From Bryobacterales bacterium (GTDB lineage: Bacteria > Acidobacteriota > Terriglobia > Bryobacterales > UBA6623), in assembly GCA_965205595.1 (NCBI GenBank), contig CBDBHI010000067.1:207674-271673 (forward strand): a stretch of DNA of 64,000 bases. The letters are read 5' to 3'. The position numbers were made by a program, and so were the translations under genes. The notes under the pieces are model-generated. The model worked only from the letters and a program-made list of their open reading frames with translations, searched no databases and had not been told where the DNA came from. Every line of letters starts with the position of its first letter. The stretch's first letter is position 1. Below, one piece after another: positions 6,483 to 24,447 of the stretch.

Positions 6483-7958
6483 TCAAAAGTCACGGAATGG
6501 TCCGCGGGGCTCGGCGGAATCCATTTCATTGACCCAGTTGCGATAGCGCTCCTGCACCATCTCCAACATGTCCGGCCGCTCCTTGGAAAGATCGTGAGAT
6601 TCGCCGATGTCCGCCTCGAGATCGAAAAGGCCCTCGCCATCGTCCATCACAACCCATTTCCATTTGCCGACGCGAGCGCCGATGCGGTTCTTGCGTTGCC
6701 AAAACATCTCTTCGCGCGGTGAAGCGGTATCGCCCCGCAGCACAGGCCACCAGTCGAATCCGTCGAGCACGACGCCCGCGGGTAAGTCCGCGCCGGTCGC
6801 CGACGCGAGGCTCGGCAAGACTTCAAGACTAGTTAGAAACTCGTCGCTGACGGCACCCGCCTCAATGCCACCCCCGGGCCAGCGAATCATAAACGGAACA
6901 CGAATGCCGCCTTCCCAGGTCTCGGCTTTTTTGCCGCGCAGAGGTGCGTTCACCGCGCCACCACTGCCGCCGTTGTCTGAAAAGAAAATCACGATCGTAT
7001 CGTCGAGAATCCCCTTCGCTTCCAGGCGATCGAGCATCTTTCCAACCGCCGCGTCCATCGCAGTGACCGCCGCGCGGTAGTCCCGCTGTCGCGCCTGCGG
7101 AGTTACTTGCTGTGTCCGCCCAGCGTAGCGGTGATTCTCGACGACTCGATACTCCTGCTCAACCGCCGGATACATTTGCTTAAACTCGTCCGGGGCCTGC
7201 ACGGACGAGCGGATCTCGGGGTCGAGGTCAGATGACCCATGTGGCGCATTAAACGGAACGTAAAGAAAGAACGGCTCCTCGCCCGCGTACTGGTCAAGGA
7301 ACCGCAGCGCCTCGCGTTCAAACAGGTAGGTGCAGTAGGTGCCTTTGTCTTCCTCTGTCTTTTCGAGATTGCGATACATGCTGGGAACCCCGTACCGCTC
7401 GTGGCTGTAGTAGTTAATGCCTGTATTTACGAAGCCGTAGAAATCATCGAACCCTCTCGACGTAGGCAGGTACCGCTGGAGTGTTCCGAGGTCCCACTTG
7501 CCGTAGATGCCACTTTTGTAGCCGACGGATTTCAGCATCTTGGGGATGATGACTTCGCGCGTCTCCATTCCACCGATGCGCTCAAATGTGACGTCATATT
7601 CCGCGGGCTTGTACTTGTAACCGTAGTCCGGAGCCTCGTTGCGGATCATGTCGTAAATTCCGTTGCGCTGCGGATACCTGCCGGTTAGCAAAGCAGCGCG
7701 CGAGGGCGTACAGGCCGGCCAAGACACGTAAAAATTTGTCAGGCGTGTGCCTTCGTTGACTAGACGGTCGAGCGTAGGCGTGATGATGCCGTTGCCCAAA
7801 ATGCCAAGGTCGTTATAGCCCTGGTCGTCGGAAACGATAAGCAGAATGTTCGGGCGAGCGGCCTCGGCGCTCTGCTCAGCGGGTTCGCGCGAATCACAAG
7901 ACGAGCCAATGCCGATCACTGCAACCGCGAGTAGCGAATAAAAATAGCGGTGATTCAT
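6483..7958 (-). CDS. Cys-type sulfatase (lipoprotein signal)
   Basis: SDDQG, CTPSRAALLTGRY, GKWDLG and SDNG motifs. Confidence 0.93.
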   Translation of the reverse strand: MNHRYFYSLLAVAVIGIGSSCDSREPAEQSAEAARPNILLIVSDDQGYNDLGILGNGIITPTLDRLVNEGTRLTNFYVSWPACTPSRAALLTGRYPQRNGIYDMIRNEAPDYGYKYKPAEYDVTFERIGGMETREVIIPKMLKSVGYKSGIYGKWDLGTLQRYLPTSRGFDDFYGFVNTGINYYSHERYGVPSMYRNLEKTEEDKGTYCTYLFEREALRFLDQYAGEEPFFLYVPFNAPHGSSDLDPEIRSSVQAPDEFKQMYPAVEQEYRVVENHRYAGRTQQVTPQARQRDYRAAVTAMDAAVGKMLDRLEAKGILDDTIVIFFSDNGGSGGAVNAPLRGKKAETWEGGIRVPFMIRWPGGGIEAGAVSDEFLTSLEVLPSLASATGADLPAGVVLDGFDWWPVLRGDTASPREEMFWQRKNRIGARVGKWKWVVMDDGEGLFDLEADIGESHDLSKERPDMLEMVQERYRNWVNEMDSAEPRGPFRDF

Positions 7959-8010
7959 GCTGGCACGATCCTAGCAGTCCAAGCCAACTGTTCCGCCGGA
8001 CCGCCGAGTG

Positions 8011-8460
8011 CTATTTCTCGGGTAAACGGTTGATGTCCTCAATGTCCTTCGGCCGCGCGGCGGCACGTTTGTTAGTCCTGAGATCAGCCAAGCTGATTAG
8101 ACTTACGTCGACATCGTCCCATCGCTCAATAATGCGATGTTCGTAGCACTCGTCGAATTCGAGCCCAGAGACGGACGACAAGATCTCAATCTGGAGTGGC
8201 GGGCGCCCCATCCGCACGAGCGTACGCTCCGAAAGAAACAATTCTGGGGTTAACTGTGGTGCATCGAAGCCAAATTCGCGAATCGAGTCGGCAAGCCGCT
8301 CCGCGTTGCTGCGATCGAGTGAAATCCATATATCAAGGTCGCCAGTGCTCCGAGCGTAGCCGTGATAGGTCACCGCGTAACCTCCCACTAGGAGGTAGCG
8401 AATGTCATGACCGCTCAACGACTTCAAAAATTCTTTGAAGTCGTTCGGTAGTTGGATCAT
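8011..8460 (-). CDS. Nucleotidyltransferase-family protein (DUF6036/AbiEii-like)
   Basis: LVGGYAV..HG..R.T.DLDIW and L..NK.A..RPKD..D motifs. The likely start is ATG 8460. Confidence 0.75.
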   Translation of the reverse strand: MIQLPNDFKEFLKSLSGHDIRYLLVGGYAVTYHGYARSTGDLDIWISLDRSNAERLADSIREFGFDAPQLTPELFLSERTLVRMGRPPLQIEILSSVSGLEFDECYEHRIIERWDDVDVSLISLADLRTNKRAAARPKDIEDINRLPEK

Positions 8461-8611
8461 AGCCGTAGACGATCTGTCGAAGCTGCTCAAGCGCCGCGAG
8501 GCGCTCCTCGGGAGTCTTGCTGTGCCAGTAGCGGTCGTCTTCGGCGGTTTTCTCGTCCAGGGTCGTGACGGAAAACGCCGACCGGTCGACCTTCAGGGAA
8601 TCCAATGGCAT
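8405..8611 (-). CDS. Small (68 aa) protein upstream of and overlapping the nucleotidyltransferase gene
   Basis: DRSAFSV...YW.SKTPEERL.A.E.LRQI.YGYD...RLQR.FEV resembles a small-protein family I recall as commonly paired with these nucleotidyltransferases. Confidence 0.65.
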   Translation of the reverse strand: MPLDSLKVDRSAFSVTTLDEKTAEDDRYWHSKTPEERLAALEQLRQIVYGYDPTTERLQRIFEVVERS

Positions 8612-8668
8612 GTTTACTGCGACCTTGTCCCATTATCGCATCGCCGCCTCCCGGGCGGTGTAGTTCCG

Positions 8669-9313
8669 CTACTCTGCGGGCTCTGGCTGGTCCCCTAATT
8701 CGGAAAGCACACGGCGATAAGACGAGCCGGAGCCGATTGAACCGGCGGCGCGACGAATTCGCGCCGACACCGTAGGATCGGCACCCGCCAGACGAGCGAC
8801 TTCGAGCATCACTCTCGACTTGTCGGAATCACTTCTGATTCCTTCAGCCGACTCAACAACTCGTAGCATCGTCTTGATCGAAGCGTTGGGACGCGTAGCC
8901 ACCGCTTGCAGAACCCGACTCCGATCGCTATCGGAACGAATTCGAGCAACCGACTCGAAAAACGCTTTGGCGACGGCATCGTTCTCGAGGTGTATGTCCA
9001 GAGCTCCAATCAGTACGCGGGCCTTGTCGTCGTCAGATCCGATCCGTCCAGCCGAGATCAGCAGTCGCACCGCAGTCGGAGGATCGATCGTGAAGGCAGT
9101 CTGAGATTCGTTGCAGCACAGCCGTGGTCCGGCTACCCTGGCGGCACCGGGACGGCCCAACTGGAGATCCTGAGCTGCTCCGCACCGCACAGCTACAATT
9201 GGCTCCGTAGGCTGGAAGTTGGAACGATCGCAAGTTCGCCACGCCGCCGCATTCGAATTCGCATTCGGTCGCGGCTCCGCAACCCTCCGCTCCTCGATTG
9301 GCCGCATTGACAA
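8669..9313 (-). CDS. Helical-repeat protein, possibly a 5'-truncated fragment
   Basis: Three I.SD.D(K/R).RV(L/M) repeats plus a degenerate fourth in the C-terminal half. The N-terminal ~75 aa look non-coding. Confidence 0.45.
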   Translation of the reverse strand: MSMRPIEERRVAEPRPNANSNAAAWRTCDRSNFQPTEPIVAVRCGAAQDLQLGRPGAARVAGPRLCCNESQTAFTIDPPTAVRLLISAGRIGSDDDKARVLIGALDIHLENDAVAKAFFESVARIRSDSDRSRVLQAVATRPNASIKTMLRVVESAEGIRSDSDKSRVMLEVARLAGADPTVSARIRRAAGSIGSGSSYRRVLSELGDQPEPAE

Positions 9314-11733
9314 AAAGCCGCAAAACTAGATGTATCTGGATCTCGTCGCTGCTGCTTTCGGCAGGATTGAGTTCAGCTTTCGGCCAGGATGCGAACAGCG
9401 GTCGGGTAGAGGGTACTGTGGTCGAAGGCGATCTGAACCGCGCGGTCGTTGGAGCGGTTGTTCGTGTCGACGATAGCGATTTGGAGAGCGTGTCGAACGC
9501 CGTCGGCCGCTTCGTGATCGATGCCATGGCCGCGGGAGTCGCGACGATTGTGGTGGATGCTCCGGGCTATCTCGAACTGCGCGTCGGCGACATTCGGGTG
9601 GAGGCGGGGCAGACGCTGGAACTAGATGTCAAGTTGGAACCGACGCCGAACATCCTGCAACGGATTCAGGTGACCGCAACCAAGTCGGCGCTCAGCATTG
9701 GCGAGGTTCCCGCCCAAACGGAGATCGTCGAGAGAGAGATTATGGACCTGCGTGGGGATCAAGAGTTGACCCAAGCGATCTCGCACGTGCCTGGCGTGAC
9801 CGTCAGTACGCAAGCAGGTTCGTTCGAGTCGGTGTCGCTTCGCGGTTTACCTCGCGATGGCAACGAGTTCACCAGTACGCTCTTGTTGATCGACGGCGTG
9901 CCTCAGACCGATTCTCGAAACAGCGCTCGTGTGGTCAATCTGCCGATCAACAACACGAGTACGGTCGAGGTGGTTCGAGGCCCGAATTCCGCTCTCTATG
10001 GCCGAACAGCCGTTGGCGGTGTGATTAACGTACGTACGGCTGATCCGACGCCAAAGCATCAGTTTCGAGTCGATTTTTCCGCGGGCGAGTTCGGTTTCTT
10101 CAAGGGCATCGCTCGGGCGTCGGGCCCGATTCAGCGCAGGGGCGGCTACTACGCGTCGATCGCCCGTGAACACAATGAGGGGTATTGGACGGGGCCGTTT
10201 GACTTCAACGTTGATGAGACGGCCGCGTTTGGCAAGTTGACATTCGTTCCCGACAGCCAGTCGTTTGGCAGCATTAGCGCCAACGTTGTGCGGTCGGACA
10301 ATGCCACGCCGACGAACGTTCCGATCATCGGCGGTCGACTGCTCAGCGACATCGATCCGAGGTTCGACCGCCGCACGAGTCTGAACGTCCCTGGCACGAA
10401 CTATCACCAGGAGGAAACCCGCTTCACGTTGAACTACACCCGCCAACTAGCCGAGCGGGCGCGAATTGTCGAGGTGTTCGGCTACAGGCCGATCCAATAC
10501 AAGTTCGTCGACGACGGCGACGTAATCGGCGGACCGTTCGACCTTGAGGCGACCACGCTCTCGATGTTCCCGTTCGAGTTGCAGACCGATGAAGACATTT
10601 ATTATCAGGAATTGCGATTCGAGGCCGAACCAGAGCTAGGACCCGTGCGGAACTCCTTTATCTTCGGAGTGTCGTACGACAAAACGACCGGCTTCGCAGC
10701 CGGCAACTTGATCTTTACCGACCCTGACCTGTTCGGCTGGACGCTCAACTATCTCAACCCGGTGATCCCACCCAGCGAGGACTGGCAGTTTTTCCGATTT
10801 GGCGGGAATGACTACCGCCTCGGCATCACCGGCGTCTTCGCGCAATATATGATTGCGCCGCTCAGACGCTGGGTCATGACTGTCGGCGGGCGTTACGACC
10901 GCATGGCGCTCGACAACACCCTGACATTCACCGACGGTAGCCCCATCGTGGAGGATTCGTTTGACGCGTTCAGCCCGAAGGTGAGCTCGACATTCAAGCT
11001 GTTCGGCGTAGAAGATGGCGCGGGACCGACGCTGAATATCTACGGGACCTACTCGCAGGCGTTTTTGCCGCCTCGCCGGCCAAGTCAGCTTCGGCCCAGT
11101 AACGAGCAACTCGAGTTGATCCCCGAAGACGTCGACAACTACGAGGGTGGTGTGAAAGCTAGCGCGCTCGGCGGGGCGCTGACGTTCGAAGCGGGCTACT
11201 TCTGGATGAAACGCGACGGCATCATCACGACGGTGCGGCAAGGCCCGTTCTTCCTGCCCACCAACGCGGGCGAGCACGAGTACAAGGGATTCGAATCGAC
11301 GATTCGCTGGCGCGCAAATTCAAAGTTCATGGCGTACTTCAACGCCGCTGCTTACAAGAATCGTTTCGGCGACTTTATCATCGAGCAAGAGGGCGGCGAC
11401 ATCGTTCTGACCGGCAACCGATTGCCGATCTCACCGGATCAGGTTTTCAACAGCGGCACGGTCTTCTCGCCAGTTCGGTCAGTCGATATCACCGCTGACA
11501 TCAAACATGTCGGCTCCGTGCAGGTTGATCAGCGAAACACGTTCGAATTGAACGCTTACACGCTGGTCGATGCGTCGGTCTCCTGGCGGCGCGGGCCGTT
11601 TCGCGTTACGCTCGCGGCGCAGAACATCTTTGACAAAGAGTATTTCTGGAACGGCGCGGTCTCCTCAGGCGATTCGGCCGATATCGGCCGGCCGCGTCAG
11701 GTCCTCGTTTCCACGTCGTTTGTGTTTCGCTAG
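9298..11733 (+). CDS. TonB-dependent receptor with N-terminal carboxypeptidase-regulatory-like domain
   Basis: Plug motifs (LRGL...LLLIDGVP; VEVVRGPNSALYG..AVGGVIN) and a C-terminal NIFDKEY...GRPRQV..S.SFVF beta-strand. Confidence 0.92.
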   Translation: MAALTKSRKTRCIWISSLLLSAGLSSAFGQDANSGRVEGTVVEGDLNRAVVGAVVRVDDSDLESVSNAVGRFVIDAMAAGVATIVVDAPGYLELRVGDIRVEAGQTLELDVKLEPTPNILQRIQVTATKSALSIGEVPAQTEIVEREIMDLRGDQELTQAISHVPGVTVSTQAGSFESVSLRGLPRDGNEFTSTLLLIDGVPQTDSRNSARVVNLPINNTSTVEVVRGPNSALYGRTAVGGVINVRTADPTPKHQFRVDFSAGEFGFFKGIARASGPIQRRGGYYASIAREHNEGYWTGPFDFNVDETAAFGKLTFVPDSQSFGSISANVVRSDNATPTNVPIIGGRLLSDIDPRFDRRTSLNVPGTNYHQEETRFTLNYTRQLAERARIVEVFGYRPIQYKFVDDGDVIGGPFDLEATTLSMFPFELQTDEDIYYQELRFEAEPELGPVRNSFIFGVSYDKTTGFAAGNLIFTDPDLFGWTLNYLNPVIPPSEDWQFFRFGGNDYRLGITGVFAQYMIAPLRRWVMTVGGRYDRMALDNTLTFTDGSPIVEDSFDAFSPKVSSTFKLFGVEDGAGPTLNIYGTYSQAFLPPRRPSQLRPSNEQLELIPEDVDNYEGGVKASALGGALTFEAGYFWMKRDGIITTVRQGPFFLPTNAGEHEYKGFESTIRWRANSKFMAYFNAAAYKNRFGDFIIEQEGGDIVLTGNRLPISPDQVFNSGTVFSPVRSVDITADIKHVGSVQVDQRNTFELNAYTLVDASVSWRRGPFRVTLAAQNIFDKEYFWNGAVSSGDSADIGRPRQVLVSTSFVFR

Positions 11734-11937
11734 GTCTCACTAAACGTAATGGAAGTCCCACCGTTCGCGGTTCGGAAATCGCTGGTCTATACCTACCTGT
11801 GTGTACTTAAAAGCGGGTAGGAACCTTCCCACGCCTCTGGCGCTAAGCCGGATTACTTGCGAGAAACGCCCATGTCGCCAATGCGGCGGCTCGCAGCTCC
11901 TGCCGGACTGGCGATAAGGTCCTAGGAGTCTGTCCCG

Positions 11938-12151
11938 CAGAACGCGGAGCTCCTTACGTGCTCACCTAATTCGATCACCTGGCCGCATTATGAATGCCGC
12001 CCATTGGCCGGATTTGGCAGGGTTTCTGTGAAATTTCGAGCCTCCTTGCAGGGCTTTCCGCACCCTGCAGGTATAGTGTAAGGCCCGTGTGTCCGGTTTC
12101 CGGCCGACCGAATCGCTAGGTTGTTGATTTCAAAGGCAAAAGAAATTTCAA
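11938..12151 (+). repeat. Non-coding repeat, copy 1, left part (5' exon of the intron)
   Basis: About 90% identical by eye over the core to 24283-24428 and to the reverse complement of 28402-28548. Confidence 0.9.
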
Positions 12152-12431
12152 GAGCGCCGGGATAAACCGGCATGTTGTTGGGAATGAAAGAGTCCTACAA
12201 GGAAGGAGTTAGCGAGCCACCTTGGCCCCGAGTTTTGCGGACGGCGTCGCGAGGCGACGGTCGAAGCGTAAACAGGGGTGCCGGCGGGCCGGGCTATTGA
12301 GCTTCGAAAATTCTTGTCTCAGGGCGCCGACCACGTTTGAAAGATGGGAAGGCAACACGGGCGTTCGCGTGATTCGCGAGTGGACGTCCGGCCCTGCGTA
12401 GTCTGAGAACCTGAGCACGTCGAGAAACAAC

Positions 12432-13991
12432 ATGCACGAGAACCGGGAGACCTCTGGAGTGTCTCGAGCTGATCGAGACCGGTCCGAGAAGGCGCTAAGC
12501 CGAACGGCGGGCATGTACGCTCCAGAGGAGTCTGACTGCGCCGTAGTACCTGTGAACCGACCGAACAAAGAGAGGCAACTCTTGGCGGAGGCCGGGGAGG
12601 GAAGGGTGCAGACCAAGGAGAACAGCGAAGGGTCCTACACGAGCCCGACACGGAGCGGGAAAAGAGTGTCCCAAGGACTTGGAGGTGTGCGTCGAACAGC
12701 CAAAGAGAGGAGGCAGGAAAGGTTCAGCGCTTTGCTCCACCATCTGAACGTGGATCAACTACGGGAAAGCTTTTACTCGCTACAGAGAAAAGCCGCGCCT
12801 GGAGTCGACGGCGTGACGTGGCGGGAGTACGAGACCGGGCTTGAGGATCGACTGGTCGATCTGCACAGCCGGGTGCATCGGGGTAAGTATCGGGCGCAGC
12901 CCTCGCGGAGAGTCTATATCGAGAAGGCCGACGGGCGGCAACGTCCGTTGGGCATTGCGGCGCTGGAGGACAAGATCGTCCAACAGGCCGTAGTGACGAT
13001 CCTCAATCAAATCTATGAGGTCGACTTCAAGGGCTTTTCGTACGGGTTTCGACCGGGACGCGGTCCGCATCAGGCGCTCGATGCGCTGTCGGTGGGGATC
13101 GAATCCAAGCGCGTGAACTGGGTGTTGGACTGTGATGTGCGGTCGTTCTTCGACACGGTGTCGCATGAATGGCTGGACAAGTTCATCCGGCACCGCGTGG
13201 CCGATTCGAGGGTACTTCGTCTGATCCAGAAATGGCTGAAGGCGGGCATATCCGAGGAGGGCGAATGGTTGGAGACCAAGGTAGGGACTCCGCAAGGGGC
13301 GGTGATTTCACCGCTATTAGCGAATATCTATCTTCATTATGTTTTCGATTTGTGGGTGGAAGCCTGGCGCAAGAAAGTGGCAACGGGCGACGTGATCGTC
13401 GTTCGTTACGCCGACGACATTGTGGTGGGCTTTGAGCACCGGGTGGAAGCGGAACGGTTTCGGAGAGAGCTTCAAGAACGTTTCGCCAAGTTCGGTCTGG
13501 AACTTCATGCGGGCAAGACGCGGTTGATCGAGTTTGGGCGGTTCGCCGCCCAGAACCGGACGAGACGGGGCGAGGGAAAGCCGGCGACCTTCGATTTCTT
13601 GGGCTTCACGCATTATTGTGGGAAGCGCAGGAAGACGGGCACGTTTACCGTCTGGCGCAAGACGGTTAAGAGGCGGATGGTGGCGAAGCTGCATCAGTTG
13701 AAGGCAGTTCTGCGTCGCCGGATGCACGAGCCGACGGCGCTGGTCGGGGCCTGGCTGAAGCGGGTCGTCGAGGGCTTTTACCAATACCACGCGGTTCCGG
13801 GCAACTCGGATCGGCTGGCGTTGTTCCAATACCGGCTGCGCATGCTGTGGCGACGCGTGTTGTTTCGTCGCAGTCAGAAGGGACGCAAGTCCTGGAAGAG
13901 ACTCAACCGACTGTTGGACCGCTGGATTCCTCGCCCTCGCGTTCTGCATCCTTATCCGCCGGAGCGTTTCTACGCCAATCATCCGAGGTAG
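12432..13991 (+). CDS. ltrA: Group II intron reverse transcriptase/maturase (RT + X, no En domain)
   Basis: RPLGI..LEDKIVQ, SYGFRPGR, GTPQG..ISPLLANIYLH, RYADD and FDFLGF motifs. The ORF ends immediately before DV with no HNH domain. Confidence 0.96.
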   Translation: MHENRETSGVSRADRDRSEKALSRTAGMYAPEESDCAVVPVNRPNKERQLLAEAGEGRVQTKENSEGSYTSPTRSGKRVSQGLGGVRRTAKERRQERFSALLHHLNVDQLRESFYSLQRKAAPGVDGVTWREYETGLEDRLVDLHSRVHRGKYRAQPSRRVYIEKADGRQRPLGIAALEDKIVQQAVVTILNQIYEVDFKGFSYGFRPGRGPHQALDALSVGIESKRVNWVLDCDVRSFFDTVSHEWLDKFIRHRVADSRVLRLIQKWLKAGISEEGEWLETKVGTPQGAVISPLLANIYLHYVFDLWVEAWRKKVATGDVIVVRYADDIVVGFEHRVEAERFRRELQERFAKFGLELHAGKTRLIEFGRFAAQNRTRRGEGKPATFDFLGFTHYCGKRRKTGTFTVWRKTVKRRMVAKLHQLKAVLRRRMHEPTALVGAWLKRVVEGFYQYHAVPGNSDRLALFQYRLRMLWRRVLFRRSQKGRKSWKRLNRLLDRWIPRPRVLHPYPPERFYANHPR

Positions 13992-14178
13992 GAGCCCAGT
14001 GCATTAGCAGTGCACGCTGGGATCTGTGCGGGGGGTGCCGGGCGACCGGCATCCTGAGAACGGCGGAGCGAAACTAGACTATAGAGCGGCGAATCGAAGC
14101 TGCTTTTGGGCGGAGTAAAAGTAGACCGTCCGAGTGGTCCAGCGAACATTCCTGTGGTGTTTGTGGGACACGAGAGGG

Positions 14179-15678
14179 ATGTATCGCGTGGAGCTATACG
14201 CTCAAGTACGGCGCAGTGTCTTTGTCGAAGGGCTCAGTGAGCGCGAGGCCGCCAAACGGTTTGGCCTGGCGCGAGGGACGGTGCGCAAGATGTTGCGCTA
14301 CGCCACTCCGCCGGGCTATCGGCGGCGCCAACCAGCGCAGAGGCCGAAGCTGGATCCCTTCACCGGAATCGTCGATCAGATCCTCATCGACGATCAGGAA
14401 CGTCCGAAGAAACAACGCCACACCGCAAAACGCATCTTCGACCGCTTGCGCGACGAGTACGATTTCACCGGCGGTTACACGATTGTCAAGGACTATGTTC
14501 GCGACAAGAAGCTCGGCGGGCAAGAGATGTTCGTGCCGCTGGTGCATCCGGCGGGCGATGCCCAGGCCGACTGCGGTGAAGCTCTGGTGGTCATTGACGG
14601 CGTACAGCGCAAGGCGCACTACTTGGTGGTCGATCTGCCGCCTAGCGATGACGCTTTCGTAAAAGCTTTCCCGGCCGCGACGACGGAAGCGTTTTGCGAG
14701 GGGCACAACGCAGCGTTTCGGTACTTCGGCGGCGTGCCACGCAGCATCCTCTACGACAACACGACCTTGGCGCTGGCGAGGATTCTGGGCGACGGCAGGC
14801 GCAAGCGGACCAGGGTGTTCAGTGAACTGCAGTCGCACTATTTATTCTCCGATCGTTTCGGGCGTCCGGGCAAAGGCAACGACAAGGGAAAGGTGGAAGG
14901 ACTGGTCGGTTATGCCCGGCGGAACTTCATGGTGCCGGCGCCAAGGTTTCCAAGCTGGGAAGCGTTCAACGAGCAGCTCGAAGCGCAGTGCCTCAACAAT
15001 CGTAAGCGGCGCTTGCGGCGGCACACCGAAACGATTGAGGAACGTTTCAAGCGTGACCGCCAAGCGTTGTTGCCCTTGCCGCCCACGCCCTATGACGCCT
15101 GCGACAAACGCACCACGCGGGTGCCGTCGCTGTCATTGGTGCGCTATCGCGCCAACGACTACGCGGTGCCCACACGCTACGGACATCGCCAGGTGTTGCT
15201 GAAAGGCTACGTCGATGAAATCGTGATCTGTTGTGGCAGCGAAGAGATCGCGCGCCACCGGCGCAGTTACGAACGCGAAGAGTTGATCTTCGATCCGCTG
15301 CATTACCTAGCACTGCTGGAACGCAAGACCAACGCGCTCGATCAAGCGGCCCCGTTGGCGGGCTGGGAGCTGCCCGAACAGTTCCCGTGCTTGAGACGTT
15401 TGCTCGAGGCACGGTTGGGAAAGCCAGGCAAGCGCGAGTACGTGCAGGTATTGCGATGACTGGAGGACTTCCGATTCGAGCACGTTGCCGCGGCGCTGCG
15501 CCAAGCCTGCGAGTTGGGAGCGATTGGCTTGGATGCAGTCAGGCACTTAGTGCTGTGCCGCATCGAGCAACGGCCGCCGCGCTTGGACTTGACGAAGTAT
15601 CCGCACCTGCCGGCAGCCCAGGTGGAGCAAACCTCCGCTGCGGACTATTTGGCACTGCCGGCACAAGGAGGGGGGTAA
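14179..15678 (+). pseudogene. istA: IS21 transposase IstA with an in-frame TGA at 15457-15459
   Basis: DDE transposase motifs. The IstA-like C-terminus (AIGLDAVRHLVLCRIEQRPPRLDL..YP.LP) continues in frame after the TGA to a TAA that overlaps the istB ATG (TAATG). Confidence 0.85.
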
Positions 15679-16439
15679 TGGCGAGGTCGAAACTTCTGCT
15701 CGAAGCGCATTTGAAAGCGTTGCGGCTGCCAACCTTCCTGCGCGAGTACGACAAACTGGCGCGGCAATGCGCCGCCGAGAGCTTGGATTCGAGGAGCTTC
15801 CTGCAACAACTCTGCGAGCTGGAACTGCTCGACCGTGAACAGCGGGCCACCGAGCGCCGCAGCAAGGCCGCGAAGTTTCCCGTGACCAAGAGTCTGGACA
15901 CTTTCGACTTCCCGTCCTTGCCGGCGTTGAACAAGAAGCTGGTGCTGGAACTGGCGCGCTGTGAGTTTATCGACCGCCGCGAAAACGTGCCGGCACTGGG
16001 TAATTCCGGCACGGGCAAAACGCACATCGGCTTGGCGTTGGGACTGGCGGCTTGTCAGCGCGGCTATCGAACACGCTTCACAACAGCGGCGGCACTGGTC
16101 AATGAGCTGCTCGAAGCCCGAGATGAACGGCGCTTGCTGCGATGTCAAAAGCAGTTGGCCAAGCAGGATCTGCTGATCGTCGATGAACTGGGCTACGTGC
16201 CGCTATCGAAGACCGGAGCGGAGTTATTGTTCGAAGTGTTTTCCCAGCGCTACGAACAGGGCTCGACGCTGGTCACCTCGAATCTGCCGTTTAACGAATG
16301 GACGGAGGTCTTCGGCTCCGAGCGGCTGACCGGCGCCCTGCTCGATCGCCTCACGCACCACGTTCATATTCTAGAGCTGAACGGCGAAAGCTTCCGTCTG
16401 ATCCAGAGCAAGAAGAAGCGGGCTCACTCTTTGGGCTGA
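15678..16439 (+). CDS. istB: IS21 helper AAA+ ATPase IstB
   Basis: Walker A GNSGTGKT, Walker B LLIVDELG, and TSNL.F.EW...ALLDRL.HH. Confidence 0.93.
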   Translation: MARSKLLLEAHLKALRLPTFLREYDKLARQCAAESLDSRSFLQQLCELELLDREQRATERRSKAAKFPVTKSLDTFDFPSLPALNKKLVLELARCEFIDRRENVPALGNSGTGKTHIGLALGLAACQRGYRTRFTTAAALVNELLEARDERRLLRCQKQLAKQDLLIVDELGYVPLSKTGAELLFEVFSQRYEQGSTLVTSNLPFNEWTEVFGSERLTGALLDRLTHHVHILELNGESFRLIQSKKKRAHSLG

Positions 16440-16624
16440 CCCACCGGCCACTCGCCCGGTTTTCGTGGGACGGCCTCCACTACGCCTGGGCCGCCCTAAA
16501 GGGCGACCGCAGGCTCCGTTCCAGCCGTCCCACGAAAACCGCTACCCCTTCACCAACTGGTCTACTTTTGCTCCGCCGAAGTGGTCCAAATTTACTCCGC
16601 CCTTGACAGCATCCCTACCGCGAT

Positions 16625-16671
16625 AATCGCGGTACGACCGTTTGGGCGGGTTCCGTCTTGGCCGGCGCGAG
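16625..16671 (+). repeat. Non-coding repeat, copy 1, right part (3' exon)
   Basis: AATCGCGGTACGACCGTTTGGGCGGGTT..CTTGGCCG matches the continuation of copy 3 (reverse complement). Confidence 0.85.
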
Positions 16672-16684
16672 CATGCGGCTTCAT

Positions 16685-18625
16685 TTATTCCGTGGACTCG
16701 TAAGTCAGGCCGAAGCCATATTCGAAAAGTGGCTCGGCTGAGTCGCTTGGCAAATCCTCCAACTGCGCGTCAACGGCTTCCATCGATGAAGGCAATTCGA
16801 ACGGCAGCTTACCAGTCGGGTTGAACTTGCCGAACACGACATCAAGCAGCGCTTCATCACTAGCGCCAAAGGTGCCCAACACGGCGGCGGCATTCTTCGC
16901 GATCTCTGGGATCACGGCGGGTCGATCCAAGTGAATGGAGACTACGGTCGGCTTGGAGCGCAATATTTCCAGAAGACGCTTTCGCTCGTCCCCTCTAAAC
17001 GCCAGGCTGCCGAGATGGATACGTCCGAAAAAGCCCGGTCGGGTTTCGAATGCGGTTTGTAAGCGAAGGACGGCAACGTCGGCCTGCTGCAACTGATCGA
17101 CGACAGTCCCGTATTGCGCCGCGACCTGCGGATTCACGTTCTCGACATAGATCTTGGCGCCGTGCTGCAGCGGCAGCGCCTTGGCGTCATTGGCTGCTTG
17201 ATTTTTCAGCAGTACTATCGATTTCCTCTGGGCCGTATCGGCCTCCGCCTGGAACGGCTCACTGCCAACAATCTCCTTCGCTCGGTCGGGATCGACGTAG
17301 GGATTCTCAAACACTCCCAGGCTGAACTTATCTCGCAACAAGCGCCTAGCCGACTCGTCGATGCGTTCCTCTGTGACGCTGCCGCCCGTCACCAGAGTGA
17401 CGATGTGTTCTGGATTGGAATCCCCGCCAAACTGGTCGACTCCGGCATCAATTGCTTTCGCGTAGCGCTCTTCAATCGAGAGCTCATTGACGCCCCAAGG
17501 CATCAGAGTTAAAATCCCCCAGTCGCTACACACCACGCCGTCAAATCCGAGCTGCTCCCGCAACATTCCCGTGATAATTTCTTTGTTGTATGCCATGGCG
17601 ACGTTCTCGCTCGTGACGTCGGTCGGAATGCCGTAGTAGGGCATGATCTGTGCAGCGCCGGCGGCAATGGCGGCCTTGAACGGGATCAGGTGATAGTCAA
17701 AGTTGTCGCCTGGATACACCTGCTCTTGGCCGAAATCGTTGTGCGGGTCGAGGCCGTCGAGTTGTGGACCGCCACCAGGAAAGTGCTTCGTCATCGTGAT
17801 CACGCTCGTCGGACCGAGGCCACCCTCACCCTGAAATCCAACGATGTAGGCGGTGGTCATTTCAGCGGAAAGCTCCGCGTTCTCGCCGAAAGTACCGACG
17901 ATGCGGCCCCAGCGCGGCTCGGTGGCGAGGTCCGCCATGGGATGCAACGCTGTGCGAATGCCCACCGCGCGGTACTCTTCGGACGCGATCTCGCCGAAGC
18001 GCCTTACCAACTTCGCGTCAGCCGTCGCCGCCAGGCCGATCTGTTCCGGCCATTGCGAGAAAGCCCCCGCCCGAACGCTCGTGGCGTCGGGGTCGTGCCG
18101 GAATCCGTTGCGCGGATCAGAACTTATCGTTAACGGAATCCCTAGCCGAGCCGTCTCCGCCATCTCCTGGAGGTTGTTGTTCCAAGTCGCGATGACTTCA
18201 GGCCGTTCTGAGGTCCGCACGAGCACGTGATTGATCTGTTTTTTGAGAATGACCTCGCTCGTCCCCGGTTGCGGGAATCGAGGCATGCCTGGAGGACGCT
18301 TATCTTCCTCGCCGGGAACCGGTTCGAATAGGGTCCCGTTCTCCCCCATGCTCAAGGCTGGGTGCGCCATCAGGCCGGCTTTCGCTTCAATCGTCATTTG
18401 GTCAAGCAGGTCAACGACGCGCTCCTCGACCGGCAGACGCCAATCTTCATAGGGGTCAAGGCTGGCGTTCTTGTTGTGGTCTTTGAACTCATACCCCCCC
18501 ACGGTCAGAACGTCGAGACTTCGCGCGCTGAGCTGCGGCTGCGTGAACTCGGGACCGCCCGACGAACAGCCTGCAAGCATGATCATCAGTGTGGCTACGG
18601 AGAACTGAAACGGTTTGTAATTCAT
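16685..18625 (-). CDS. Glycoside hydrolase family 3 (beta-glucosidase-like), lipoprotein
   Basis: SSDPR, EPRWGR, TKHFPG, CSDWG and SIVLLKN motifs; the likely start is ATG 18625 with a LAGC lipobox. Confidence 0.92.
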   Translation of the reverse strand: MNYKPFQFSVATLMIMLAGCSSGGPEFTQPQLSARSLDVLTVGGYEFKDHNKNASLDPYEDWRLPVEERVVDLLDQMTIEAKAGLMAHPALSMGENGTLFEPVPGEEDKRPPGMPRFPQPGTSEVILKKQINHVLVRTSERPEVIATWNNNLQEMAETARLGIPLTISSDPRNGFRHDPDATSVRAGAFSQWPEQIGLAATADAKLVRRFGEIASEEYRAVGIRTALHPMADLATEPRWGRIVGTFGENAELSAEMTTAYIVGFQGEGGLGPTSVITMTKHFPGGGPQLDGLDPHNDFGQEQVYPGDNFDYHLIPFKAAIAAGAAQIMPYYGIPTDVTSENVAMAYNKEIITGMLREQLGFDGVVCSDWGILTLMPWGVNELSIEERYAKAIDAGVDQFGGDSNPEHIVTLVTGGSVTEERIDESARRLLRDKFSLGVFENPYVDPDRAKEIVGSEPFQAEADTAQRKSIVLLKNQAANDAKALPLQHGAKIYVENVNPQVAAQYGTVVDQLQQADVAVLRLQTAFETRPGFFGRIHLGSLAFRGDERKRLLEILRSKPTVVSIHLDRPAVIPEIAKNAAAVLGTFGASDEALLDVVFGKFNPTGKLPFELPSSMEAVDAQLEDLPSDSAEPLFEYGFGLTYESTE

Positions 18626-18650
18626 TAGAAATTTCTCGGTCGCAGTGACA

Positions 18651-20084
18651 TCACTTTGGCCCGCGGCTCGGTGGGGCCGGTGGTGGCATTCGGCGAGGGT
18701 TCGGATTCTTTCCCTTGAGGTACTGGTTCTCGACCGCTTTGACCGTTTGCCTATGCGCTTCGACAATCTGCTCGATACGCTTGAGCACGTCGGGATGATC
18801 TTTCGCGATGTCTAACCGCTCGCTCACGTCGTTGAGTAGGTGATAAAGCAGCGGCGGGTCGTGCGCTTCTTCCGGTGTGCGAAAGGCATAGCCGTTCCGT
18901 GTGATGAAATGCGCCTTGTACGGCCCCGATCGCGCCGCAAAGATTTTGCGATCGCGGTAGTAGATCATGTGGTCGCGAGGGCTTTCAGCGGTTCCCAGTA
19001 GAGCCCCTGAAAGATCGAAGCCATCGATCGCGCGGTCAGCGGGGATCTTAGCCCCGGCAAGCCCGGCTATCGTTGGCAGCAAGTCCAGCGTCGAACCCAT
19101 CTCGCGCACAGTTCGCGATGGGATCGTTCCCGGCCACCAGAAGATCGCGGGCACTCGCATGCCCCCTTCCCAGGTACTCTGTTTGCCGCCTCTGAGTGGT
19201 CCCGCCGAACCACCATGCGTTTGCATCAGCAACCACGGGCCGTTGTCTGACGTGAAGACGACCATCGTTTTCTCCGCGAGCCCCGTCGTTCGTAGCGTCT
19301 CGAGGACCTGGCTTACCGACCAGTCGACTTCCTCGACAACATCTCCGTACCTGCCCCCGACACTTCGATCCGCGAAGGCTTCAGAGCGGAAGAGCGGAGT
19401 GTGAGGCATGCTGTGAGCCAAGTAGAGGAAGAACGGCTCGTCTTTGTTGTTCTCAATGAAACGGATTGCTTCTTCCGTGTAGCGCCGTGTGATCGTCGTC
19501 TGGTCCGCAGGCCTTTCGACAATCTCCTCATTCCGCATCAGCGGGACGTTCCAGTATTCGACCTTGGGGTCGAAGTAAGCCTTGATGAACTGTGGCGAGC
19601 CGGGCACGCCGTCCATATCGTTCGAATAGGGAATGCCGAAATAGCTATCGAAGCCCTGGTTCGTCGGAAGAAATTGAGGCAGGTGGCCGAGGTGCCATTT
19701 GCCGACGATTCCAGTTGCGTACCCTAGGTCTTTAAGCATTTCGGCGATCGTAATTTCGCTCTCTGGCAAGCCGCCCTCGTGATAGGGAAAGAAGACTCCG
19801 CCCGACAGACCACTCCGCATCGGCAGCCTTCCGGTCAACAGCGCCGCGCGGCTCGGCGTGCAAATGGCCGCGCCAACGTAGAAATTGGTCCACTTCTGGC
19901 CTTCGGCGGCCATGCGATCTAGGTGTGGCGTCGCGATCGTAGGGCTGCCATACCCACTAAGGTCCCCATAGCCCAAGTCGTCAGCAAAGATGACGACGAA
20001 ATTCGGCCGATCTTGCCCGGCCAGCGTCAGTACCGTCGAGAGTAGGAGACACACACGGGCACAACTCCCAATCGAATAAGTCAT
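18651..20084 (-). CDS. Cys-type sulfatase (arylsulfatase A-like)
   Basis: ADDLGYGD, CTPSRAALLTGR, GKWHLG and TSDNGP motifs. Confidence 0.93.
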   Translation of the reverse strand: MTYSIGSCARVCLLLSTVLTLAGQDRPNFVVIFADDLGYGDLSGYGSPTIATPHLDRMAAEGQKWTNFYVGAAICTPSRAALLTGRLPMRSGLSGGVFFPYHEGGLPESEITIAEMLKDLGYATGIVGKWHLGHLPQFLPTNQGFDSYFGIPYSNDMDGVPGSPQFIKAYFDPKVEYWNVPLMRNEEIVERPADQTTITRRYTEEAIRFIENNKDEPFFLYLAHSMPHTPLFRSEAFADRSVGGRYGDVVEEVDWSVSQVLETLRTTGLAEKTMVVFTSDNGPWLLMQTHGGSAGPLRGGKQSTWEGGMRVPAIFWWPGTIPSRTVREMGSTLDLLPTIAGLAGAKIPADRAIDGFDLSGALLGTAESPRDHMIYYRDRKIFAARSGPYKAHFITRNGYAFRTPEEAHDPPLLYHLLNDVSERLDIAKDHPDVLKRIEQIVEAHRQTVKAVENQYLKGKNPNPRRMPPPAPPSRGPK

Positions 20085-20315
20085 GCCCGGGCATTATCAC
20101 ACGCGGGAACTCCGCAACCGCTGACCGTTGGAATAGCCACCGTACGCTGACTGTTGGCCATTGTCCCCGATCTCCTCAATCGAATCTAGGTGTTATGGTG
20201 ATGAACAACTAATTAACCGTTTCCAACCCATTCCGGGCGACGCGAATCAGTTAAATCAGTCAGCACTCACGATAAGAAATGTGGCCTTGGCCGCCGGACC
20301 GCAAGGAAGGTAACA

Positions 20316-20957
20316 ATGCTTTCAAGCACCCGATCAGAAATCGATCATCACACTATCAAGCTCGTAGTTGGAGTAATGACGCTATCTCTAGCAAGTTTGA
20401 CGAATTTCTTCGCGGACATTCCGATTCAATCGATCAGCGCTTCCTACCACGAAGGCGGCTGGTCTCGAGATATATTCGTAGGATTTCTGTTCGCGGTATC
20501 CGCGTTTCTGGTTGCCTACAACGGACATTCGTCCCGGGAGATGGTGCTGAGCAAGATTGCGGCCGTTGCGGCCCTCGGCGTTGCGCTGTTCCCTTGCGAA
20601 TGCGAAAATTACGAACAGATCATTCCCGGCGTCCACGGCACCTCCGCAGCCGTCATGTTCGTGATTCTAGCGGTGTTCTGCTATGGGTTCTATCACCGCG
20701 CGCTCGGCAAAGGCCACCCTCAGGCGAAGCTGCGAGCCTATATCTACGCGGTCTGCGGCATCACAATTGTCGTGTCGATTCTAGTACTTGCCATTGACAA
20801 TCTCTTAAACGACGTTATCAGCTCACGCATCGTTCGACTTACCTTCTACGGCGAGTGCGCCGGCTTAGTCGCGTTCGGAGTCTCATGGCTCACCGCAAGT
20901 CGCGCCTTACCTCTAATCACTAGTGAAGAGGAATGGCTCCCGCCCTTTGGCAACTGA
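20316..20957 (+). CDS. Polytopic membrane protein of unknown function
   Basis: About six hydrophobic segments with SIS.SYH and RDIFVG.L motifs; opposite strand to its neighbours. Confidence 0.65.
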   Translation: MLSSTRSEIDHHTIKLVVGVMTLSLASLTNFFADIPIQSISASYHEGGWSRDIFVGFLFAVSAFLVAYNGHSSREMVLSKIAAVAALGVALFPCECENYEQIIPGVHGTSAAVMFVILAVFCYGFYHRALGKGHPQAKLRAYIYAVCGITIVVSILVLAIDNLLNDVISSRIVRLTFYGECAGLVAFGVSWLTASRALPLITSEEEWLPPFGN

Positions 20958-21083
20958 GCGTAAGAGCGTACAGGATTCGGCGACAAGGTCGATGGGAATC
21001 TGAACGCGACAGCTCTCTTCATCCATACGCGGGACTGAACCGGACAGACGCCTTCGTGCAATGCATTAGCCCTGCTCGCTCTC

Positions 21084-22553
21084 TTATTCCCGCTCCGACT
21101 TTCCCGCGGTTTGTTCGCTAAGCAGGGGCACGTCTCGTTTGTCGCGTTGCATCCGCCCGTCAAACTCTCGCGCCATCGTCGTAATCCGCTCAACCACCTC
21201 GGGATGCGCCGCCGCAACGTCTGTCGTTTCCCCGATGTCGGCCTCGAGATCGTATAGCTGTGGCTGCGGCCAAAGCCGGTAGTGTCGCTCGAAGAGACCG
21301 TCGAGCATCTGGTACCACAGCGAAATCGGCATGGAAGGATAATTGTCGATCTGTAAGAACAACTTCCAGCGGCCTACGCGAACGGCCTGAAGTTGGTGGC
21401 CAAAATAGTAGAAGAACGGGCGCTCCTCAATTTCCTCGGTTTCGCCGTGCAACAGCCCCGCAATCGAGCGGCCATCGATCACGCGGTCTTTCGGCGGCTC
21501 GACGCCCGCCAGCTCGGCGATAGTTGGGAGCAGATCGAGAATCGAGGCGACTTCATCCGTTGTGCGCCGCGCTGGGATGACGCCGGGAAGCCGAAAGATT
21601 GCGGGAACGCGCATGCCGCCCTCAAACGTACTCCCCTTGAACCCCCGTAGCGGACCGGCGTCGCCGCTGCCCGCATGAATCCCAAAGCGCGCCACGGGCG
21701 CATTCCGAGTTGGGCCGTTGTCCGATGTGAAGACGACCATCGTCCGCTCGGCGATCGCTAGCTCGTCGAGCAGGTCGAGGATCTCTCCCGTACTCCAGTC
21801 GATCTCCTCGACCGAGTCGGCGTAGAGTCCGTGCTCGGAGCGCCCGTGAAATTCTTCCGAAGCGTAGACCGGGTTGTGCGGAAACGTGTGTGGTAGATAG
21901 AGGAAAAACGGTCGGTCGCGGTTCGAGCGAATGAACTCGATCGCGCGAGCGGTATAGCGTTGCGTGAGGGTTTCTTGCACCGGCGGCGCCTCGACGACTT
22001 CGTCGTTGTCGAGAAGCGGGATCTCCCATAGCCCGTGCTGGGCCCGCATCTCTTCGCCGTCGGGCTTCTTGTACATGTCATTGGAATAAGGGAGTCCGAA
22101 GAAGAACTCGAATCCTTGACGCTGGGCGCGGAAGGGCTCGGGATAGCCCAAGTGCCACTTTCCAATCGCAGCGCTGGCGTAGCCGGCGGGCGCGAGCATC
22201 TCGGCGACCGTGATCTCCTCGGGATCGAGCCCGGTCATCTCGGTCGGGAAGAGCACGTTCGGAACTCCGGCCCGGATTGGATATCTTCCCGTGAGGATCG
22301 ACGAGCGGGAAGGACTGCAGAACGGGGCCGCGGCGTAGAAATTGGTGAAGCGAGTTCCCTCGGCCGCCATCCGGTCGAGACGCGGCGTTCGGACCTTCTC
22401 CGAGCCGTAGCCGCCCAAATCGCCGTAGCCAAGGTCGTCGGCGAAGATGACGATGAAGTTCGGAGGAGGGTCCGCGGGTGGTTCAGATTGTTGGGCCCCG
22501 CAGCCGATGAATACGGCGGAGGCGAGCGCGAAGTAAAGCGCCAAGCGCGTCAT
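21084..22553 (-). CDS. Cys-type sulfatase (lipoprotein)
   Basis: CSPSRSSILTGRY, GKWHLG and TSDNGP motifs; FIGC lipobox. Confidence 0.93.
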   Translation of the reverse strand: MTRLALYFALASAVFIGCGAQQSEPPADPPPNFIVIFADDLGYGDLGGYGSEKVRTPRLDRMAAEGTRFTNFYAAAPFCSPSRSSILTGRYPIRAGVPNVLFPTEMTGLDPEEITVAEMLAPAGYASAAIGKWHLGYPEPFRAQRQGFEFFFGLPYSNDMYKKPDGEEMRAQHGLWEIPLLDNDEVVEAPPVQETLTQRYTARAIEFIRSNRDRPFFLYLPHTFPHNPVYASEEFHGRSEHGLYADSVEEIDWSTGEILDLLDELAIAERTMVVFTSDNGPTRNAPVARFGIHAGSGDAGPLRGFKGSTFEGGMRVPAIFRLPGVIPARRTTDEVASILDLLPTIAELAGVEPPKDRVIDGRSIAGLLHGETEEIEERPFFYYFGHQLQAVRVGRWKLFLQIDNYPSMPISLWYQMLDGLFERHYRLWPQPQLYDLEADIGETTDVAAAHPEVVERITTMAREFDGRMQRDKRDVPLLSEQTAGKSERE

Positions 22554-22570
22554 CGTAGTTTCTGGCAGGG

Positions 22571-23935
22571 CTATTTACCCTCGCTGATCGTCCATCCCCA
22601 GCCCTTTGGTACCTCGCCGCCGCCGTTGTAATCAGCGCTCGGCTTGAGCGGCGGGAGCGTGGCGACGAATGCGCTGTAGCGCTCGAGCATACGGTCAACC
22701 GCGTCGGGATGCATCTTCGCGACATCGTTCCGTTCTTCCGGATCTTTCTTTAAATCGAACAATCGCCAACCGTCCGGGTGCTTGACGAGACGCCAGTTCT
22801 TCCAACGTACTACGTACAAATTACGGCGCGGCGCATCCGTAGGGTCGGCGTTGTGCCAGAAGACAAACTCGTGGACATCGCCCTCTTTCTCGGCCTTAAG
22901 GTACGGCAGCAAGTTCTTGCCGTCACAGCGCTCGGGTAAGGGCTTTCCAGCAGCCGCGGCTGCCGTAGCGTAGAAGTCCAAGGTGCACATCATGCCGTCG
23001 TAAGTGATTCCGGCGGGAACAACCCCCGGCCAGGAGATGATCGTCGGCGTGTGCACCCAGCCTTCTTGCTGCGTCCCCTTGCCCTTGCCGCCGCGGTAAG
23101 GAGCGGAAGATCCGCCCTCCGTCAGATTCGCTCCGTTGTCGCCAGTCAGAAAAATGAGCGTATCATTTTCGAGATCGTGCTTCTTTAGCATGGCAAGCAG
23201 CTTTCCGACCGCATCGTCCACAGCGACGACCGCCCCTTCGTACGCGGTGCCGTCGCCCGCTTCGATGCGATCTCGATAGTGCTGCGGTGTGTCCTTGACT
23301 TTCGAGTGAACGGCGAACGGCGAGAAATAGAGAAAGAATGGTTTCTCGGCATTTCTCTCGGAGTTTCTCTCGACGAATTCAGCCATATAGTCGCCTACCA
23401 GATCAGTGAGATAAACCGGCGAGCCGTCCTCCAATTCCCGGTTGTACTGAAAGCCCGGAGCATGCCGCGCCACTTCCATGAAGCCGCGTTTATGCGGGCC
23501 CTGCTCGGACGAACCAATATCCCACTTCCCCACTTGACCCGTCACATACCCGGCATCGCGCATGAACTCGGCCATGGTGGGATGATCATCCGGAATAGGC
23601 AGTCCGCGGGCCATCCCCGACTTGCCGAACCGTTGTGCATACATTCCAGTCATCAGCGAGCAGCGGCTGGGCGAGCATGGCGGATTGGTGATGTACGACA
23701 TCGTGCACTTCGCGCCGGCAGCCGCCAGGGAATCAATATGCGGCGTCGGAATTCGCTTGTTCCCGAAACAGCCGAGATCACCAAAGCCCAGATCATCGAT
23801 GAACAGTACGACTACATTCGGTTTGCGCCCCTGATTGTTCTGCGCCGAACCCACGCTTGAGTGCAAGCCCGCGGCAACGGCGGCTGCCCCGGCCGTGCCC
23901 AGGAAGTCTCGTCGGGTGTTTCGATGAGTTTGCAT
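22571..23935 (-). CDS. Cys-type sulfatase with Tat signal
   Basis: TRRDFLG leader; CSPSRCSLMTG, GKWDIG and GDNG motifs. The start is set at ATG 23935. Confidence 0.92.
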   Translation of the reverse strand: MQTHRNTRRDFLGTAGAAAVAAGLHSSVGSAQNNQGRKPNVVVLFIDDLGFGDLGCFGNKRIPTPHIDSLAAAGAKCTMSYITNPPCSPSRCSLMTGMYAQRFGKSGMARGLPIPDDHPTMAEFMRDAGYVTGQVGKWDIGSSEQGPHKRGFMEVARHAPGFQYNRELEDGSPVYLTDLVGDYMAEFVERNSERNAEKPFFLYFSPFAVHSKVKDTPQHYRDRIEAGDGTAYEGAVVAVDDAVGKLLAMLKKHDLENDTLIFLTGDNGANLTEGGSSAPYRGGKGKGTQQEGWVHTPTIISWPGVVPAGITYDGMMCTLDFYATAAAAAGKPLPERCDGKNLLPYLKAEKEGDVHEFVFWHNADPTDAPRRNLYVVRWKNWRLVKHPDGWRLFDLKKDPEERNDVAKMHPDAVDRMLERYSAFVATLPPLKPSADYNGGGEVPKGWGWTISEGK

Positions 23936-24112
23936 ATCTGTAGCTTCATGGCCAGGCATTGAATCTCTCAGACCAGAGCCTATGTTACCGGTGTGAGCAT
24001 ATCGGTTGCAGTCAGTGAAATGGCTGCGAAGCCGCAAGAGCGAGTTGAATAGCGCGCTGCAACCGGTGATTCACGAGAATATGGTAAGTTCCCTGCCTTT
24101 CACTGAAGGGCC

Positions 24113-24447
24113 AAATGTCCGGAAATGTCCGGATTTGTCCGGTTTTCTCTGAAAATCTCTGGTCGGGGGCGATTTGCCATACTTAACAATGGTATTATGT
24201 CAAACATAACAAAGCAGAATGGGGAACTCCTCGCGTGTCCATACAAGCCAATCTCGCGGCCGCATCATGAATGCCTCGCTGTGGCCGGATTTGGCAGGGT
24301 TTTTGTGAAATTTCGAGCCTACTTGCAGGGCATTCCGCATCCTCCAGGTATAGTGTAAGGCCCGTGTGTCCGGTTTCCGGCTGACCGTATCGCTAGGTTG
24401 CTGATTTCAAAGGCAAAAGAAATTTCGAAATCGCAGGACGACCGTTT
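24113..24447 (+). repeat. Non-coding repeat, copy 2 (empty intron target at 24428|24429)
   Basis: Aligns with copy 1 and with reverse-complemented copy 3; begins with a 10-mer tandem (AAATGTCCGG)x2 + ATTTGTCCGG. Confidence 0.9.

Follow-up and report, generated by a model that had tools for sequence, protein, structure and literature searches.

A recent IS21-family insertion in domain VI of a group II intron from a soil Bryobacterales bacterium most likely leaves this intron copy dead

We analysed a 64-kb window of DNA from a soil Bryobacterales (Acidobacteriota) bacterium, in which a dispersed non-coding repeat carries a group II intron and the intron itself carries an insertion sequence (IS) of the IS21 family. 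All coordinates refer to this window and to its + strand unless stated. The intron extends from 12152 to 16624 (+) and measures 4473 nt (4.47 kb) with the IS, or 1913 nt without it. The IS, 2554 bp long with TG...CA ends and the two genes istA and istB, occupies 14055-16608 and has the same orientation as the intron. Its left end, at 14055, starts with TGAGAACGG and its right end, at 16608, finishes with CCCTTGACA. On either side lies the hexanucleotide GCATCC (14049-14054 on the left, 16609-16614 on the right), identified by flank comparison as a 6-bp target-site duplication. The sequence preceding the IS (14025-14054) is TGTGCGGGGGGTGCCGGGCGACCGGCATCC, and the one following it (16609-16624) is GCATCCCTACCGCGAT, the ten terminal bases of the intron (16615-16624) being CTACCGCGAT. 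The insertion point is located between C14054 and C16615, 3 nt 5' of the branch-point A. Deleting the IS together with one GCATCC yields the exact 3' end of the other intron copies (10/10). A 6-bp match alone has a chance of 1/4096, and a reconstruction exact to the base is far beyond chance. An earlier reading of the same DNA, hereafter called the original prediction, had given these coordinates, the identities of the parts and the 6-bp GCATCC duplication, all of which agree with the window sequence and with independent copies. Its nesting order, with the intron inside the repeat and the IS21 element inside the intron, is likewise confirmed by the rebuilt empty repeats and by IS-free intron copies.

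The host repeat is 330-480 bp long and has ragged ends. Its 5' part, which constitutes the 5' exon, lies at 11937-12151 and shows an 85-87% match to empty copies at 28615-28393 (- strand) and 24214-24437 (+ strand); the same 5' exon is found at 10 other intron copies. The 3' part, or 3' exon (16625-16671), begins with AATCGCGGTA and matches 28401-28355 (- strand). Joining 12151 to 16625 rebuilds the empty repeats (28615-28355 on the - strand and 24214-24437 on the + strand), which fixes the intron boundaries between 12151 and 12152 and between 16624 and 16625 without sliding ambiguity. In all ten loci fetched, the intron starts with GAGCGCCGGG directly 3' of AAATTTCAA, and ends with GGGCGACCGGCATCCCTACCGCGAT directly 5' of AATCGCG. 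The insertion site is identical in all intron copies compared. The 3' end of the 5' exon (12141-12151) contains the two intron-binding sites, IBS2 (AAGAA) and IBS1 (TTTCAA, 12146-12151). As read from the sequence, exon-binding site EBS1 (UUGAAA, 12337-12342), located in the terminal loop of the Rfam-aligned Id stem, is complementary to IBS1 (UUUCAA) and would pair with it.

The two empty repeat copies of the window (24214-24447, + strand, and 28261-28741, - strand) have one guide-sequence mismatch each, with AATAA replacing the IBS2 sequence AAGAA in one and TTTCGA replacing the IBS1 sequence TTTCAA in the other. These mismatches could account for both copies being unoccupied. Rfam searches of the empty repeat returned nothing credible. 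A TTGCAG-N17-TATAGT motif in the repeat was considered as a promoter and dropped, since a promoter and terminator scan of 11700-16900 found no sigma-70-type promoter.

The 5' segment of the intron (12152-14054) comprises domains I to V and domain VI up to the insertion point. It was assigned from the Rfam family RF02005 and from the empty-site boundary, and is identical to the same segment of the IS-free allele described below. Domains I-IV match RF02005 at 12189-12411 over the full length of the model (1-225), with 176.6 bits (gathering score 49) and an E value of 1.8e-51. In its domain IV, the intron encodes an intact reverse transcriptase (RT)/maturase of 519 aa (12432-13991), which scores 348.3 bits with TIGR04416 (cut-off 300) and also matches Pfam RVT_1; domain searches detected no endonuclease domain in this protein. 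An identical protein occurs in 62 blocks of the assembly collection, which consists of long contigs from soil metagenome assemblies. Both in the window and in the 10 other copies, whose RT is identical and intact throughout, the intron 5' end is GAGCG, not GUGYG. We regard this start as a lineage variant tolerated at position 2 rather than as a private or disabling mutation. Domain V (13992-14024) folds as expected, as a hairpin with the AGC triad (13993-13995) and a 2-nt bulge, and it covaries in relatives, with the compensatory changes CCCAG/CUGGG versus CCGUA/UACGG. No Rfam domain V/VI family matched 13950-16700 at E≤1. The intact copy L005 is equally without a match, so that this absence is uninformative; likewise, RF00029 does not match even on an intact copy and is uninformative for this intron.

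In more than 10 other copies with a 100% identical RT, domain VI is uninterrupted and reads CCGGCATCCCTACCGCGAT, immediately followed by AATCG. In the window, fold and sequence conservation place its 5' strand at 14027-14041, its GCGA loop at 14042-14045 and the upper part of its 3' strand at 14046-14054, all upstream of the IS. The intron 3' end (CUACCGCGAU, 16615-16624) lies downstream of the IS, with branch-point A at 16617, a spacer of 7 nt between this A and the splice site, and the 3' splice site after U16624, as deduced from empty sites, other copies and the fold. In the fold of intact domain VI (-28.9 kcal/mol), 14027-14031 pair with 16618-16622 as a basal helix of 5 bp, the branch A sits in a UA bulge, and 10 bp of upper helix follow, capped by GCGA. 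The features expected of a group II domain VI, a bulged A 7-8 nt from the 3' end and an AY terminus, are found in intact copies and in the IS-removed window, A16617 being the 8th nucleotide from the 3' end and the intron ending in AU; in the window itself, the helix is interrupted. The original prediction had located the IS between domain V and a putative branch-point A at 16617, close to the intron 3' end, and the bulged position of A16617 in the intact fold agrees with it. The IS enters between the 9th and the 10th pair of the upper helix as numbered from the loop, in domain VI's central part, where six G in a row face UCCCU.

This part of the intron is highly conserved. In 16 divergent relatives (L062-L079, JGI metagenome contigs), no difference is seen over the 42 nt that span J5/6 (the junction between domains V and VI), domain VI and the 3' end (100% identity); the search pattern used to collect these relatives forced only 28 of the 42 nt to be invariant. 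The relatives are located in different exons, and the 3' end of their open reading frame (ORF) region is only about 35-52% identical in a crude nucleotide alignment. From these comparisons, we judge the constraint on the domain VI sequence to be unusually strong. Domain VI has to toggle between the contacts used for branching and those used for exon ligation, and when an intron has a 7-nt spacer, its domain VI also undergoes a strand shift around the branch point as splicing passes from the first step to the second (PMC9294222). Besides, in one of the related introns (L066, Ga0209819_10024237) the 3' end abuts another intron-like 5' end, GAAAGCGCCGGGATAAACCGG, an arrangement of tandem or nested introns.

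Members of the IS21 family (IS21, IS100, IS408 and others) encode a DDE transposase, IstA, followed by an AAA+ helper, IstB, with overlapping stop and start codons. They have TG...CA ends with multiple repeated motifs in their terminal repeats, and generate duplications of 4-8 bp. The element of the window resembles them in its istA-istB order, gene overlap, ends and duplication, and differs by a premature stop in istA. The istA gene (14179-15678) scores 271.6 bits with NF033546 (cut-off 160). The istB gene (15678-16439) is intact, encodes 253 aa and scores 280.4 bits with NF038214 (cut-off 200), in addition to a Pfam IstB_IS21 match; its ATG overlaps the istA stop (TAATG). The terminal inverted repeats are imperfect (TGAGAACGGCGGAG at one end and CTCCGCCCTTGACA at the other), and GGCGGAG repeats are found internally. 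The limits of the element were set by the ends that it shares with other copies. Those in L011-L013 have the same ends and length and are 99.5-99.6% identical to the window copy, and 44 further copies, from about ten Bryobacterales species genomes, share these ends and have flanks unrelated to one another; their duplications, at more than 20 sites, are mostly of 6 bp.

In the window, an in-frame TGA at 15457-15459 (TTA to TGA, with the G at 15458) removes the last 72 residues of IstA. Intact istA, as found in L011 and L012, reads TTA at this position and encodes 499 aa, while 40 other copies read TTA or TTG (Leu). Exact look-ups of the shortened IstA of the window (426 and 441 aa) gave no match. 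Given this nonsense codon, the window IS is probably non-autonomous. As for its wider distribution, in many metagenome runs (X1-X8, X39-X42), including sponge and seawater samples, the IS is covered 100-1000x more deeply than the unique flank, and always as the intact-istA allele; it is far more widespread than this host. Downstream of istB, the IS also contains an 18-bp perfect inverted repeat (16457-16541), whose arms are 49 nt apart and which is not followed by a T-run; it might hinder read-through to the intron 3' end.

An IS-free allele of the same locus, which the original prediction had proposed to look for, was found in L015 (ERZ26167216). L015 contains both unique flanks of the window locus and no IS, and its 1913-nt intron shows 0 differences from that of the window (0/1913). 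It is 99.89% identical over window 7125-14054 and 99.72% identical over window 16609-25635. On the other hand, the insertion is found again, at the identical site, in L016 (ERZ25071132; 4473 nt), along with the same downstream flank and, left of 11990, a different upstream flank. Because it is seen in two assemblies, the insertion is real, and because the intron part is identical to the IS-free allele at the same locus, it is recent. From these alignments, we thus judge the insertion to be real, recent and polymorphic. The window and L016 differ at 11 positions over 13.6 kb, and 8 of these mismatches lie in the 2.55-kb IS, about 11x the rate of the flanks, which suggests gene conversion among IS copies after insertion. 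That the window and L016 were hit independently at this site was considered and rejected in favour of one event, with recombination upstream and gene conversion inside the IS.

Comparison of window 6432-25635 with L005, L006, L013, L015, L016 and L017 revealed that the flanks of the intron are mosaic. Writing I for the intron and other letters for the flanks, the arrangement is A..I..B in the window and in L015, A..I..A' in L006 and L017, B'..I..B in L005, B'..I::IS..A' in L013 and X..I::IS..B in L016. These combinations seem to fit homologous recombination or inversion between identical 1.9-kb intron copies, or chimeric long-read assembly. IS-mediated inversion or cointegrate formation was rejected as their source, each IS having its own matching duplication in continuous intron sequence. 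The mosaic flanks also bear on the question of whether the IS was put into the intron by long-read mis-joining at repeats, since the intron and the IS are both multi-copy and differences between assemblies could reflect chimeric assembly. However, the 6-bp duplication is perfect and allows the intron to be restored to the base, a hallmark of transposition, not of a mis-join. In addition, the same junctions are present in L016, an independent assembly from another sample, and the A..B flank adjacency is seen independently in L015. An assembly artefact is thus extremely unlikely.

A second, independent insertion of this IS was identified in another copy of the same intron (L013:2372-4937). It corresponds to window 12512-12517, in the N-terminal part of the RT ORF, and is accompanied by the 6-bp duplication CATGTA. 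Among the copies compared, the istA TGA allele is only found in the window, L016 and L013, all three inside group II introns and at two independent insertion sites. If this IS21 lineage preferred the intron, as DNA, through its transcription or through retrohoming intermediates, the hit in domain VI would be non-random. Such targeting would account for the second insertion and for the rare TGA copies being exactly those inside introns, and GGCAT is present in both target sites. Yet the two sites differ in their location within the intron and in their register relative to GGCAT, and the 44 other copies have unrelated targets with no visible consensus; moreover, the TGA tally extends to the copies compared only. 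We therefore consider targeted insertion very unlikely. The confinement of the TGA allele to intron-borne copies hints at a target bias or at a local history in one lineage, the number of cases (n=3) being too small to decide.

The consequences of the insertion for domain VI were then evaluated by folding. In a minimal mimic with the basal helix imposed, seven branch-migration isomers, in which the six duplicate bases go from all-upstream to all-downstream, range from -33.9 to -35.3 kcal/mol. Formation of the basal helix in this mimic gains only about 3 kcal/mol over the local hairpin alone. The idea, put forward in the original prediction, that the 5' strand of domain VI can pair with the downstream GCATCC is thus formally correct. 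Two related proposals do not stand. The duplication does not preserve the branch helix in any particular way, as any insertion leaves every native pair formally available, and the IS would not be looped out as an enlarged domain VI loop, as the GCGA hairpin stays local and the structure would be a branch-migrating three-way junction. In this model, the IS would leave the 3' strand as the third arm of the junction, 3-9 nt before the branch A. In the partition-function fold of the IS-bearing region 13985-16640, the upstream GCATCC pairs locally (p≥0.99), the downstream GCATCC never pairs with the domain VI 5' strand, and a 9-bp palindrome (UACCGCGAU/AUCGCGGUA) joins the intron 3' end to the 3' exon by pairing. 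This perfect palindrome lies astride the 3' splice site (window 16616-16634), with TACCGCGAT on the intron side and AATCGCGGTA on the exon side. It is specific to this repeat target and absent from relatives in other exons.

Overall, the locus carries a recent, simple insertion of an IS21-family element in domain VI, and we consider it very likely that this intron copy is dead both as a ribozyme and as a retroelement. The high-copy, endonuclease-less intron homes by EBS1/EBS2 pairing to one fixed site of the dispersed non-coding Bryobacterales repeat. Simple transposition of the 2554-bp IS21 element into one of its copies duplicated GCATCC. The 2.56-kb insert would make a three-way junction of domain VI's dynamic central part and move the branch A, together with the 3' splice site, away from domain V, while the upstream half of domain VI would be free to fold alone as a stable GNRA hairpin. 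From the junction, the separation and the stable upstream hairpin, we infer that efficient branching, exon ligation and retrohoming would be lost in this copy. Its intact RT ORF could still supply protein in trans. As the exons are non-coding repeat, no host gene depends on splicing, and the hit is probably near-neutral, some twenty sister copies remaining.

Several points weigh against this interpretation. All native domain VI pairs are formally available despite the IS. Even for the intact intron, folding with 16 nt of exon favours the 3'-exon palindrome over the basal helix, and nearest-neighbour folding is a poor guide that cannot decide the function of a protein-assisted ribozyme. Splicing with a hydrolytic first step needs no branch A. 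RNA evidence for the IS-bearing allele was sought in public runs and none was found, so the loss of splicing is deduced rather than observed. Finally, what the Tn5 screens examined was splitting of the transcript of a IIA intron (PMC3410883), and the insertion in the present lineage is a continuous one.

The original prediction had left two fates open, a dead intron or one that splices with the IS21 element as cargo. Death is much the likelier, and neither the folding, nor the distribution of the composite, nor the Tn5 screens lend much weight to cargo. In the cargo scenario, domain VI would re-form around the branch A with the downstream GCATCC, and the 4.47-kb composite might retrohome with its IS21 element. 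The isomers using the upstream and the downstream duplicate are equal in energy, and pairing of the downstream copy would leave 7 native bp above the branch A and 5 below it. Group II introns also tolerate kilobase inserts in domain IV, and Bacillus introns have a domain VII of 53-56 nt after domain VI (PMC9294222). However, the local hairpin is strongly favoured in the fold, the insertion lies in a section that must strand-shift and toggle (PMC9294222), and domain VI was intolerant in Tn5 saturation screens (PMC3410883). The intron part is without decay, as a functional composite would be, but this is explained by the recency of the insertion.

The distribution of the composite also speaks against cargo. 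The intron::IS composite is found only in the window and in L016, both with the same downstream flank, and none of the 44 other IS copies is inserted in an intron. The pattern of the right junction has 0 matches in the metagenome collection, as compared to 18 for the intact domain VI end. None of the indexed public runs holds the junction words. Many of these runs contain the intron; in the RNA runs only some 50% of the words (about half) are present, most likely those of the IS. Where a run holds the flank, its short-read contigs contain only IS-free intron ends and IS ends with other flanks, and the contigs break at the element borders. These absences rest on incomplete data, namely the fetched assemblies, the metagenome collection and the public runs. 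A mobile composite would be expected at other repeat copies, yet none is seen there. Taken together, the cargo scenario is very unlikely. It is highly improbable, too, that the IS-bearing intron splices, either via the three-way junction with the downstream GCATCC or through a hydrolytic first step with protein from a sister copy in trans. We thus retain a dead intron copy as the preferred interpretation.

Comparison with known systems helps to place this locus. Nested mobile elements known from bacteria include group II introns within or next to IS elements, as well as intron copies cut short or interrupted by other mobile DNA. The nesting of RmInt1 in ISRm2011-2 (PMC4238363) likewise combines a retroelement and a DNA transposon in non-essential DNA, and involves a multi-copy, endonuclease-less intron that homes to a repeated sequence; here the disrupted copy is one of many. 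The order is reversed, however, as the IS lies inside the intron, in domain VI beside the branch point. No published IS21 insertion in domain VI was found in the literature searched. In twintrons (Euglena plastids, Trichodesmium, Methanosarcina; PMC4424553), a mobile element also sits within a functional domain of a group II intron, and the inner intron must go before the outer one can fold (PMC4424553). Whereas the inner element of a twintron is a group II/III intron, which splices itself out of the RNA first, the inner element here is a DNA transposon without such an exit, and no ribozyme match was found in 13950-16700.

The Tn5 screens of Ll.LtrB (PMC3410883, PMC1874635) also involved a DDE transposon with a target duplication, and sampled all intron positions. 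Saturation with Tn5 gave functional fragmentation sites across domains I-IV and none in domain VI, and its authors pointed out that the Tn5 duplication can restore motifs (PMC3410883). In contrast to the continuous insertion described here, the Ll.LtrB constructs split the transcript with a terminator and a promoter; furthermore, Ll.LtrB is a IIA intron with an endonuclease-bearing protein, while the present intron is endonuclease-less. Introns of the B.c.I4 type, with their 3' extension named 'domain VII' (PMC1865049, PMC2691827), show that extra RNA near domain VI and the 3' splice site can be compatible with branching. That extension is 53-56 nt long, structured, conserved and located after domain VI, unlike the 2.56 kb of foreign DNA found here inside the helix and before the branch A.

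The insertion is thus an ordinary event, a further instance of the known nesting of mobile elements. It provides a clean, datable case in which a selfish element most likely disables a second one, in a soil Acidobacteriota genome rich in such elements. Both alleles, filled and empty, are free of sequence decay and form a convenient natural pair for gauging how domain VI tolerates insertions. Should the IS-bearing copy turn out to splice, the view of a compact branch helix would need revision, since domain VI would accept a 2.5-kb arm; it would also offer a new cargo site for targetrons, and the intron could ferry a DNA transposon by retrohoming. More than the insertion itself, the accompanying observations inform on the dynamics of this genome: intron copies that may act as recombination substrates, an IS lineage whose nonsense allele is found only in introns among the copies compared, and a domain VI that is invariant among the divergent relatives.

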